DNA from: Harriotta raleighana
Lineage: Eukaryota
NCBI GenBank assembly: GCA_050575255.1
Contig: JBNZDD010013709.1
Location: 6,763,898-6,827,897 of the forward strand
Reading direction: 5' to 3'
Length of the DNA: 64,000 bases
Below the pieces are notes generated by a model. That model made no database searches. It had not been told where the DNA came from and was given only the letters and a program-made list of their open reading frames with translations. The translations under genes were made by a program, and so were the position numbers. Positions within the stretch are counted from its first letter, which is position 1. Each line of letters begins with the position of its first letter. Positions 59,048 through 64,000 of the stretch are shown here, piece after piece.

Positions 59048-61110
59048 TTTTAAGTACATACTGATTCCATTTAAAAGAATGTACTATATTGATACACAAG
59101 TCTTCCTAACGTTTTTGAATAACATTTTAACCAGACTCTTTCTGAAGTGGTTGTCAATGGAGCTGCATGTATTCAGTTTGTATTTCATGGGTGTTTCCAT
59201 ATTTAAGTGATGTTAACACTGCCCTGTCTGAGAGGAACAGTCTCCCTAGTGTAGGAAATTCACTGTTGTAAATGGAGGCTGAATTAGAATAATAACAGTT
59301 TATTCTGTCTTTCACTCCAGGATAGGATAATATCTTGAAGCAAGTTACATCGACCTTGAAGAAGGAGGAGATCGTAGTTTAATAAACCAATATTTTTTGG
59401 GGGGTGATTTATTTTTGTATTTCTCCAGATGTGGGATATCTGTCCTGCTGCTGCTGAATGGAATTCTTTTCCATTTGCTCATCTTAGCCAAAACATTTCT
59501 CAACCATTAGGTGCAACAACTTTGATGATAATAATAATCTTGCATTTGATATAATGCCATTTGATATCGTGTCAGAAGGATGTTTCAAAGCATTTCACGG
59601 GATTAACTGTCGTCAAAGACACCACACTTTCCAACGAAAGGATTTTTTAAAATTGCCACTCGATCCAAGTCTGTTTGTGGGACACAGCTGTGCACAATTG
59701 TCTGCCGTGTTTAGCCCACACTTTACAATATATTCTGCAAAGCTCTTTGAGACACCTCAATGATGTGATAAGGTGCTTTATCAAATGCAATGATTATTAC
59801 TATTATTATAATTTCTTGTCTTATGTGTCAGCCCAGTTCAGATGTAACTCAGAAATACTGCACACCAAGACCTTTCATTTGTTTCTTCTCCTTTCTTTTC
59901 ATAGTTTCCTGCAGTTTTCCAATACGTTTTTGCAAGCCATAAAATACTGCATACCAGTAACATGCATATTTTCCCTTCATGTAGATCTGCTCTATACTGT
60001 CTTCTACAGCTGCGCATAGTTTATTCGATTACTCTGAAGGAAAAGAAATATGAAAATGTTAATGAATACCCAACTTAATTTTTCCACATTATCAACACTC
60101 TATTGCTATCTTACCTGAAATATTAAAAAGAGATAACAGTGGAAGAAAATAAGAGTATTCTGCACCGCAAAGGTAAACTTAATAAAATTCATGCTTATTA
60201 TCTGATGGAGATGAAAATAATCTTAGCCTTTATGTGCGTGGTCAGAAACAATAACTATGATATATTGCAGGATAGACCTCAGGCACCCGAAAGTCTACTT
60301 CCCAAAGATTAAATAAACAAAATGTCAATGATAAATAAGAAAGAAAAATTGCTGCAGTCCAATCCGCATTTGTGATACAAAAATAATACTCCATGCAAAT
60401 CAGATTGAATTGCATTGACATGAAAGATCTGTATGAATTAGTTCTCCACATTTGTACAATGTTGACCATAACTCTCATCAGTCCGGATCAAGCTCCCTCC
60501 ATTTCATTTCTAAATTTAAATAATAAAATATTAATCCTGGTTTAACTTAAATGTCTGAACACATTGATGATGTGTCATCAAACTGCCCATAACATGGTTT
60601 AGAATTCATTTAGTTCAAACACAGATGGGTAAGCAATGTAATGGCAATTTTAAAGATGTAGCAGTGCTGACTAGTGTTATATTTCATGAACTGTGTAATA
60701 AATATCATCGATTCTTAACAAGATCAGTGTGGTTCCATGCCAGTAAGGTATTCCTGTGTTCCCTCCTCCCCATCACCATCATCAAACATATATTCAATTC
60801 ATTTCACATACAATAACTCCTTTTTACTAATAGAAATAAAGGTATTAGTGAATTATAAATGGTTCAGTTACTGAAATGTCTGGGGGAGGGAAGAGGAATT
60901 AGTTTAAAAACTGATCGAAATATAAAGTGCAATGTTTTACAAACATTCTTTCTTATCTGTTCAGCAATGTGATCTGTTGAGCTTGTAAACTGAAACAGCA
61001 AACTTGCTTGTAGCTTCCGTTGAGTTTGCAGCTCAACTATTTTAAAACGTTCGACAGCTGGTAAGAAACACTTAATATTGTATTATGTTTTAACTTGCTT
61101 TCCTTTGGAG

Positions 61111-61125
61111 GCAGGGAATTGTCAA
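61111..61125 (+). CDS. EML6: candidate 15-nt alternative microexon: (R)QGIV(K/N)
   Basis: taacttgctttcctttggag|GCAGGGAATTGTCAA|gtaagt; phase 2-2; peptide resembles the recalled EML5 linker insert ER-QGVVRGS-RPP. Confidence 0.78.
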
Positions 61126-62279
61126 GTAAGTATTATCTACCAATTCATAGAAGATAATACATTTTTTATTAAAACGTGAAATTGTTGTACCAAAATTGTG
61201 TAATACTGTACCTTCCGCCTTGATGTTGGCATGTCTGAAAAGTATTAGCTTTTAATGGCTTCATATGCATATCAGATTATACCCGGTGTTCAGTCAATTG
61301 TAACATGTTGCGTATGTTCCAAACAAGACAACGGTTTTTTATAAAATATTGTGCATTGTGAAATAGAGAATACAGTTTAAGAAGAACAGTAAACTTTGTG
61401 CTGTGATGCAAGCAATTGGGGTGTATTTAACATTAGGCTGCTTATCGTATCGGTAATACTGGGGCTGATACAAATAATTTAGCAAAATCCACTGAAACAA
61501 ATTAACAATCAATTTGTAAACCAAGAAAGGAACTGAACTTTAGCAAAGGAAAGCGTAGCTGCATGAACATTTACTAGTTTAACAACCTGCCTCCCTACCT
61601 GCTGCCTAGGCTTATTTCAACCCATTGTTAGCATGCTTCTTTACAGCACATTTTTCATGTTGGAAACTGTATTTGATGCAACAAGTTAACGTTTATGTAA
61701 ATAGCTCAACTCACACCATTATTTTCTAAAAGGGAAATATCATTCAGAGAGTGGGGGAGTGAAGGGATTCACTCTGACTGAAAAATAATGCGCCCCACAT
61801 GGAACTTTCAAATGAATCGCAGTATTTAAAATATCTCCTCTCTGATATTGAATGCAATATTGCCATTTGAGGCTATCCTCAAAGCAGCCTTGAGGAAACG
61901 TGTTGTTTTAGACACTGTCAAATTATGACATTGCATATGTCATATATCTTCGATAACAATAAGCAAGACTTAGAGAACTGGACTAGGAAGATTTAAATAT
62001 TTGGGATATCCAATTCTCATACCTATCGATAATCACTGCCTGAAGTTAGACCTACAGAATGTACAGTAGAGCCTCCTTATAACGCAATTGAATGGGGTCA
62101 TTAAATTCCAAACGCACCTTAGATTGTGCTTCCACATTCACTGCTCCTGTTGGAAGTCTCTTATTGTGAAGCACGAGTGCGGCAGGGAGTAAGATTGTGG
62201 GGGTCTGATCAATCCAAAGTGGATTATTTTTTAGCGAAGGAGCTGGCTGTTATGTGGGAGCTGAACAGGTCTGTGAACC

Positions 62280-62838
62280 TCACAGACAAACCAGCCGAAA
62301 CCTTCGTCCACGCCTTTGGCGTTTCCCGACTACACGATTTCATTTTCCTCCTCGCTGGTCTCCCCAGCTCCACACAATTCAACTAATTCAAAACTCTGCG
62401 GCCCGCATGCTCACTTACACTGAACTCCCCCCACAAACATCACAGGCCCCACTGTCTCCCAATCACACACCCTAAACTCCGTACGTAATCACACCAGTCC
62501 TTGGCAGGCCTCACTTGTTTTCGAGTTCCTTCATGCCCCTCACACACCCTTACCTATCTGATTTGCTTACTTCCTACTCCACCTCACCCACTGGCTCTGG
62601 TGTCCTGCTTGTTGCTCATCTTCTCCTTCTCCACTATCGGTGACCGCGACTTCAGCCATTGCGCCCCGAAACTTTAGAATTCTCCCCCTCAATCCCTTCG
62701 CCCTAAAGATCTTCCCCTTTCGATCATCCTTACGGTCACCTCTCCCCTCCCTCTCCCTCTGGCTTGGGCTCAGACTCCGCCACTAGCGATCACTCCAGGG
62801 AAGTGTGAAGGGCGCTCTATAAATGCAAGTTGTTATTT
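62280..62838 (+). mobile_element. L2 LINE 3' end, decayed
   Basis: AETFVHAFGVSRL..QLIQNSAARML; tail gtgaagggcgctctataaatgcaagttg. Confidence 0.8.
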
Positions 62839-63711
62839 TAGTGAGTGAATCCCTACTCCAGCTATAAACAAATCTGGGTTAAAGCAAAGCGCATTATAAT
62901 TGGGTTCTACTGTATCACCAGACCAGGAATTCTTTCACCAGAAATTTCTAAATATTGATCCCCATGAGATTGAATTTTTTCATCCATGAATTTTAAAAAT
63001 TCCCAAATATTCTGATGTTTGCTTTCCATTAAAAATATTTCTTCCCTGAATAATGTTCCCCTTTAATTAGTAAAGTGTGCAACTGCTTTGTAACAGTCCT
63101 AGTAAATCCCTAAACATTTTGACATATCTTAAACATTAAACTAGCTCTGTGATGCGATTACACATTGCATTAGGAATTCAGTACATCCAAAGGTGTGGCT
63201 ATAGATATTCTGGTTAAGTATACATGGACACTCTCATGAGTTTAATATAGAAATTCCAAAAGCTCCATTGCTGCTCGTAATAAGAGTTCCTAGTTTTTTC
63301 CATGTATTTAGAATGCTTCAAACGATAGCAGCGTTCTTACTTTATTAATTACAGATTTTTAAAAAAAGTGAATACACTATTAACCAGCTTTTGATAAAGG
63401 GTAATATAATGCCATAGACCTAGGAAGCATTGACAAAGCTTCCCTTTCTGTTTTTTTTCTTCCTACTCTATAGGAGCTTAGTACAAAGTTGTCCCATTGA
63501 TGCCAGGGTAGGGGTTTTCTGAATTTGTAAAGTGAAGCGCTCTGACTTTTGTTGTTTTTTTTGTTGGCATGCTTGAGAAGCATGGTTTGTGCCAAGCAGG
63601 AATGTCAATTGATACTCTTTATGAAAGTGCTTGTGCATGAATGCGGTTTTTCTGATGCATTTTTCCTAATTGTACTAATATTTTCACTTGGCTTTACTTG
63701 CTGCTAACAAG

Positions 63712-63720
63712 GGGATCCAG
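63712..63720 (+). CDS. EML6: candidate 9-nt alternative microexon: (K/R)GS(R)
   Basis: ctttacttgctgctaacaag|GGGATCCAG|gtaact; phase 2-2; completes QGIVKGSR. Confidence 0.76.
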
Positions 63721-64000
63721 GTAACTCTTCACTAGTTGTTTTGTGTAGGTTGTTGACAGCCTATGTGTTTTAACAGTGAACTCATTTGCGATTTAACTTC
63801 AAATGTAACTCGCCTCCTCGGATCATTTGGAATTAATTGTTCGTGTTACTCTTTGAGTCATCGTAATTATTGGTGGGGGAAATCCAGGCAAGGAAACAAA
63901 ATGGAGTTATTATATTATTGCATTTCTAATGCTCAATACTGCGCAGTGGGAAATTGTAGAATTGTCGAACCACTAACATTAGGAGGGTGAATTACATCGT

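Follow-up and report, generated by a model that had tools for sequence, protein, structure and literature searches.

Paired optional microexons in the TAPE2-TAPE3 linker of chimaera EML6, shared with EML5 and likely switched by SRRM3/4

We analyzed a stretch of 64,000 nucleotides (nt) from the chimaera Harriotta raleighana (contig JBNZDD010013709.1, positions 6,763,898 to 6,827,897 of the forward strand; hereafter the window), which carries part of the gene EML6. We consider it very probable that one EML6 intron in this window holds two frame-preserving cassette microexons, common to the paralog EML5, which SRRM3/4 likely switch in neurons and photoreceptors and which add 3, 5 or 8 residues to the linker between the TAPE2 and TAPE3 domains. 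As judged from sequence comparisons, the two blocks are real optional microexons of chimaera EML6, and most of the cassette was found to be already known.

Two microexons in one EML6 intron

The gene in the window was identified as EML6 through the upstream constitutive exon, whose best matches were cartilaginous-fish EML6 proteins. This exon had one further match in the H. raleighana genome, a second locus whose best match was EML5 of the chimaera Callorhinchus milii. C. milii EML6 translated identically in 14 of the 22 exons tested, making it close to the window gene and not the same sequence. The intron carrying both microexons is 10.3 kb long, with the following constitutive exon situated 3.8 kb past the window end (G000:C13709:6831691-6831769).

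An earlier note on this DNA had proposed the 15- and 9-nt blocks as a hidden pair of microexons, and their coordinates, AG/GT borders and phase (2-2) agreed with the sequence base for base (Table 1). Neither block contains a stop, and both lengths fall within 3-27 nt. When the exons were spliced in silico, the reading frame was kept for insertions of 0, +9, +15 and +24 nt, with the full product reading EER-QGIVK-GSR-PPVSR; the proposed QGIVKGSR product is also present in the C. milii protein XP_007890604.2. The UGC motifs near both 3' splice sites and the strong 5' sites were likewise borne out.

Table 1. Features of the EML6 linker intron and its upstream exon (positions in the window).
Feature	Position	Strand	Remarks
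Upstream constitutive EML6 exon, 127 nt	57331..57457	+	Ends in phase 2 (..GAA GAA AG, then gt); codes for the first half of the TAPE2-TAPE3 linker, which is conserved
UGC at -15 from the 15-nt acceptor	61096..61098	+	Inside a 9-base stretch identical in EML5
15-nt microexon, adds QGIVK	61111..61125	+	Preceded by ag, followed by gtaagt; weak GAG acceptor (4.7), strong donor (9.7)
11-nt form of the 15-nt exon	61115..61125	+	Internal CAG acceptor (Gln codon), score 9.1; frameshift
Two UGC at -13 and -10 from the 9-nt acceptor	63699..63704	+	82-nt AG-free zone upstream
9-nt microexon, adds GSR	63712..63720	+	Preceded by aag, followed by gtaact; very weak acceptor (0.9), strong donor (9.9)

The splice-site matrices drew on 28 constitutive junctions within this EML6 gene, which scored a mean of 8.8 for both acceptors (standard deviation 2.9) and donors (standard deviation 1.6). 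We then ranked all stop-free, in-phase stretches of 3-30 nt bordered by AG and GT in the 10.3-kb intron (n = 241), among which the 15-nt block took rank 1 and the 9-nt block rank 4. Only two of the 241 candidates encode peptides seen in homologous proteins, and they are exactly these two blocks. A TGC within positions -20 to -6 was found at four of four microexon acceptors of EML6 and EML5 compared with 3 of 28 constitutive acceptors (Fisher exact test; p = 0.001, with the paralogs not independent; EML6 alone, p = 0.02). UGC near the 3' splice site has been described as the motif of SRRM3/4 microexons (PMC9303857).

With so many AG/GT-bordered candidates in one intron, and with the search for sequencing runs listing no RNA for Harriotta, the two blocks might be chance intronic matches that have no role in splicing. 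We give this a negligible probability, and conservation refutes it, as the exact peptides recur in dozens of vertebrate records, an identical mouse exon is supported by reads, and the paralog carries copies of both blocks.

Linker forms across EML6 records

We assessed the linker in 152 stored EML6 records that have both linker anchors, a redundant set composed mostly of predicted models. No insert was present in 96 records, while 26 contained QGIVKGSR, 11 contained QGIVK, 2 contained GSR and 17 contained other sequences, 10 of which still terminate in one or both microexon peptides. The QGIVKGSR form was encountered in C. milii, sharks, rays, bichir, teleosts, frogs, a lizard, a crow, a tenrec and Old World monkeys. 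The blocks are therefore conserved in other vertebrate EML6 genes, with peptides found from sharks to primates; this conservation among jawed vertebrates is at the peptide level, and the splice-site context was read as DNA in Harriotta EML6 and EML5.

It was previously proposed that the linker has four isoforms. All four in-frame forms (0, +3, +5 and +8 residues) were present across the EML6 records from sharks to primates, but no species showed all of them among the matches listed, where at most three occurred within one species (0, +3 and +8 in bamboo shark and bichir; 0, +5 and +8 in piranha). The 15-nt exon also possesses a second, frameshifting acceptor (see below), and there are therefore more than four outcomes. 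In C. milii, a related chimaera of different sequence, the same linker appears with QGIVKGSR in RefSeq isoform X1 (XP_007890604.2) and without it in X2 (XP_007890605.2), and the +3 and +5 forms were not among the matches listed.

It was noted that a few models fill the 8-residue gap by reading through into the intron, including C. milii EML5 (YQNLKNII) and bowfin EML6 (ELSNSSFR; P0214, P0401, P0020). These fillings show how protein-guided annotation mis-calls these microexons.

The EML5 paralog and the age of the cassette

We found the same pair in the matching intron of Harriotta EML5, on the minus strand at G000:C13671:2803676-2803662 and 2802570-2802562. The EML5 and EML6 pairs share order, phase and lengths, with identity at 13 of 15 and 8 of 9 bases (21/24). 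The UGC-bearing stretch is kept between the paralogs, while the remaining intron sequence has diverged and could not be aligned. Among 52 EML5 records, 22 had no insert, 19 had an 8-residue insert, 3 a 5-residue insert, 3 GSR and 5 other inserts. One residue of the insert is specific to the paralog and stable from sharks to mammals, being K in EML6 and R in EML5.

The insert motif was absent from all 89 non-vertebrate records with the linker anchor, a set with thin isoform sampling that covered tunicates, echinoderms, hemichordates, molluscs, cnidarians, a placozoan, protists and others, and in which no cyclostome or amphioxus record was identified. Because EML5 holds the same pair with its UGC and none of these records carries the motif, the cassette probably originated on the vertebrate stem, ahead of the EML5/EML6 split, in line with the proposal of the earlier note that it predates the duplication. 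An origin before the vertebrates was considered and found to be unsupported by the same records.

The two genes could instead have gained the exons separately, or have been homogenised by gene conversion, with no inheritance from a gene that preceded the duplication. This intron did gain other exons separately (a 24-nt exon in catshark and skate, one of 108 nt in frogs and a 15-residue insert in a brittle star), and the sets compared contained no record identified as lamprey, hagfish or amphioxus. Such a history is nonetheless very unlikely, given that the two pairs agree in order, length and phase, in 21 of 24 bases and in the upstream motif, inside introns that otherwise do not align, and that the K/R difference between EML6 and EML5 has held from sharks to mammals.

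Regulation by SRRM3/4

The earlier note had assigned both exons to the SRRM3/4-regulated neural class. As to the response to SRRM3/4, this assignment agrees with published tables for the 9-nt exon of mouse Eml6 and for the 15-nt exon of human and mouse EML5, but the 15-nt exon of EML6 was in none of the tables searched. The mouse Eml6 9-nt exon (MmuEX0016830) equals positions 63712-63720 of the window in all nine bases and has 279 supporting reads in the part of Additional file 2 compared (PMC7821500). In the portion of table S2 of PMC8797185 that was covered (both Eml6 rows and two of nine Eml5 rows), this exon is listed as "eMICdep", a class for exons whose inclusion is lost when Srrm3/4 are knocked down in N2A cells or in Srrm4 knock-out brain, and mouse Eml5 MmuEX0016814 is listed as "eMICsens". 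The 9-nt exon of mouse Eml5 was classed as forebrain-differential (PMC7821500, as covered). In supplementary files 1-12 of 18 of PMC9303857, the human EML5 15-nt exon HsaEX0022381 has a percent spliced in (PSI) of 89.3 in retina compared with 9.7 elsewhere (datasets S1 and S6), and its change in PSI was +15.6 for SRRM3, +20.5, +72.7 and +28.1 for SRRM4, and 0 for MSI1.

Domain matches identified two SRRM_C loci in the Harriotta genome, which are candidates for SRRM3 and SRRM4. Given the weak acceptors, the UGC at -10 to -15, the strong donors and these two loci, SRRM3/4-type regulation would be expected in this chimaera by analogy. For the EML6 15-nt exon such regulation can only be inferred, because the exon is in none of the tables searched.

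Several observations weigh against this assignment. In the covered parts of PMC7821500, the mouse Eml6 9-nt exon has low coverage and no neural-differential call in the embryo series, where the mouse Eml5 15-nt exon falls in the "Included" cluster without a strong tissue pattern. The EML5 retina microexon is recorded on the human sheet only, not those of mouse, chicken or zebrafish (PMC9303857, files as above). The EML6 15-nt exon is in neither the two rows for the Eml6 transcript in the mouse MicroExonator list nor the two Eml6 rows of table S2 (PMC8797185). Neither gene name appears in the 708-row zebrafish neural exon list (PMC12626424) or the 314-row HEK293 SRRM4 target list (PMC7935315). 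Additionally, the protein records that support the linker forms are mostly computed gene models, and the structure model described below represents the form with no insert and is missing the start of TAPE2. Across the supplements covered, the gene names were absent from those of PMC12626424 (12 files) and PMC12626420 (12 of 13 files), and one expression row was the only entry on either gene in those of PMC7935315 (12 of 19 files).

These points bear on a reading in which both exons are real and the 15-nt exon of EML6 is not an SRRM3/4 neural switch, with broad or weak inclusion or another regulator, so that the 9-nt exon alone follows the neural programme. The absence of the 15-nt exon from every regulation table searched fits this reading, as does the "Included" status of its mouse Eml5 counterpart in one study (PMC7821500, as covered). 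We nevertheless judge it unlikely, since the UGC at -15 is kept between the paralogs next to a weak acceptor and a strong donor, the EML5 counterpart is SRRM3/4-responsive in both human and mouse in the tables covered (PMC9303857, PMC8797185), and the majority of EML6 records lack the 15-nt exon.

An internal CAG acceptor and the 11-nt form

The earlier note had overlooked a CAG acceptor located 4 nt inside the 15-nt exon. This internal acceptor outscores the in-frame one in both paralogs (EML6, 9.1 vs 4.7; EML5, 10.6 vs 8.3). When the resulting 11-nt form is used, the first stop falls 45 nt into the third exon downstream, a 99-nt exon that is followed by at least seven further exons, so that the stop lies more than 50-55 nt before a later junction, the criterion for nonsense-mediated decay. 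With this many junctions after the stop, decay of the message is predicted. RefSeq EML6 models of the 11-nt type were found in catshark, bichir, shad and piranha, and the frameshifted tails of the first two resemble the one predicted for Harriotta (27 of 33 residues identical in catshark, 18 of 31 in bichir). Mouse Eml5 MmuEX0016814 is itself written with both acceptors, 11 and 15 nt, in the rows of table S2 covered (PMC8797185).

We consider it most likely, from the sequences compared, that the 11-nt message is a tolerated by-product or splicing noise rather than a regulated product. The alternative is that the internal CAG is a selected feature, limiting EML5/EML6 levels in cells expressing SRRM3/4 by diverting microexon inclusion to nonsense-mediated decay. 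Its higher score in both paralogs points this way, along with its recurrence in the four fish EML6 models and the mouse Eml5 catalogue entry (PMC8797185, as covered). CAA would encode the same Gln without creating an acceptor, yet CAG was present in all three DNA sequences examined. However, the microexons are conserved base for base in any case, so a retained CAG is not diagnostic, and acceptors a few bases apart are a frequent source of noisy splicing. We therefore regard a selected decay switch as rather doubtful; were the 11-nt acceptor regulated, one microexon would set both isoform and dose.

Protein context of the insert

In C. milii EML6 the HELP motif and each type of EML propeller occur three times, giving three propeller pairs, consistent with the family description of three HELP-WD/TAPE units and no coiled coil (PMC4761370, in the sections covered). 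An AlphaFold2 model was obtained for a lynx EML6 fragment in the no-insert form (52 sequences; mean predicted local distance difference test score, pLDDT, 83.5). The insertion point falls in a stretch with pLDDT below 50 (residues 503-518). The last strand of TAPE2 (437-441) precedes this stretch and the first of TAPE3 (537-543) follows it, which places the insertion in the TAPE2-TAPE3 linker, as the earlier note had located it. The microexon-bearing linker is predicted from this model to be disordered or flexible.

The insert falls in a variable gap between two linker motifs, GYDSDV..KPH upstream and PxVSR downstream, which are nearly invariant over 52 sequences (vertebrate, invertebrate and one choanoflagellate); the residues directly before the insert vary. 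The full insert has a net charge of +2 from two basic residues, contains one serine and lies ahead of a basic stretch. It was also noted that GYDSDV..KPH hardly varies between vertebrates and a placozoan and that the model shows it as partly ordered (pLDDT 63-81; residues 466-500 of P0067), and no function for this motif was found in the literature searched.

EML1-4 bind microtubules through a basic region and soluble tubulin through the TAPE domain (PMC4761370, as covered). The coiled coil and N-terminal basic region that EML1-4 use on microtubules are both missing from EML5 and EML6 (PMC4761370), so their conserved linker, with its tunable basic insert, is a sensible starting point for asking how EML5/EML6 engage tubulin. 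In the mechanism we propose, SRRM3/4 in neurons and photoreceptors would switch on both EML6 microexons, adding 3, 5 or 8 residues to the predicted disordered linker. The insert would lengthen the variable gap between the conserved motifs, bringing two basic residues and a serine, and the longer basic linker might retune the spacing of the propellers or its own grip on acidic tubulin tails. The competing CAG acceptor inside the 15-nt exon would yield a frameshifted message that is predicted to be degraded. That the microexons tune motif spacing or contact with tubulin tails is a model-based proposal to which we give less than an even chance.

A more encompassing reading, which appears quite unlikely, is a two-layer switch in both EML5 and EML6 dating from the vertebrate stem. 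The dose of SRRM3/4 would set the linker to 0, +3, +5 or +8 between motifs conserved to placozoans, and the Gln-codon acceptor, stronger than the in-frame one, would send some of the included message to decay, tying isoform choice to protein level in neurons and photoreceptors.

Relation to known microexons

The cassette is mostly already known, because both exons are in public annotation (RefSeq, including a chimaera) and three of the four exons are catalogued in mouse or human with SRRM3/4-response or neural calls. The description of the exons as hidden therefore did not survive, with RefSeq models of C. milii and many vertebrates including both of them and VastDB identifiers existing for the 9-nt exon of mouse Eml6 and, in both mouse and human, for the 15-nt exon of EML5. 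Together these rule out a reading of the pair as hidden and unannotated. No main-text account of the EML5/EML6 cassette was found in the literature searched, which had most subscription journals outside it.

The nearest known exon, mouse Eml6 MmuEX0016830, is in the same gene, matches the Harriotta 9-nt exon in all its bases and is classed as eMIC-dependent (PMC8797185, PMC7821500); it differs in being from mouse and not a chimaera, and it stands as a table row, with no function studied in the sections covered. Human HsaEX0022381 and mouse MmuEX0016814 of EML5 are homologous to the first microexon, with the same phase and the internal CAG acceptor. In the parts of the sources covered, the human exon is enriched in retina and the human and mouse exons respond to SRRM3/4 (PMC9303857, PMC8797185), but these belong to the paralog and encode QGVVR or QGIVR compared with QGIVK in Harriotta EML6.

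As in other vertebrate eMIC microexons, the pair is within 3-27 nt, frame-preserving, preceded by UGC near the acceptor, conserved among jawed vertebrates and placed in a loop of a cytoskeletal protein. Unlike typical examples, the two exons follow each other within a single intron, are retained in both paralogs and come with a frameshifting second acceptor. With the present analysis a chimaera joins the species of a catalogued microexon event, and the EML5 and EML6 events come together as one ancestral cassette.

Other features of the intron

Other lineage-specific in-frame exons were noted in the same EML6 intron upstream of the pair, including the 24-nt exon of catshark and skate and the 108-nt exon of frogs, and the 15-residue insert of brittle star is alternative and occupies a site equivalent to the microexon insertion (proteins concerned: P0112, P0124, P0536, P0541, P0478/P0465). 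We found no convincing homologs of the 24-nt and 108-nt exons in the Harriotta intron. A 126-nt retina-specific exon is tabulated for chicken EML6 in the files covered (PMC9303857).

A lemur EML6 model (P0049) contains YGVVRGSR, which is similar to the peptide of the EML5 microexons and apparently stems from a 15-nt extension of the upstream exon at its donor; it may be an aligner artefact. A GT is also present in the window 15 nt beyond the upstream-exon donor (57473, within 57458-57474). Finally, an element at about 58515-58620, repeated about 870 bases past the window end, looks by eye like the head of a tRNA-derived short interspersed element and was the source of several false microexon candidates.

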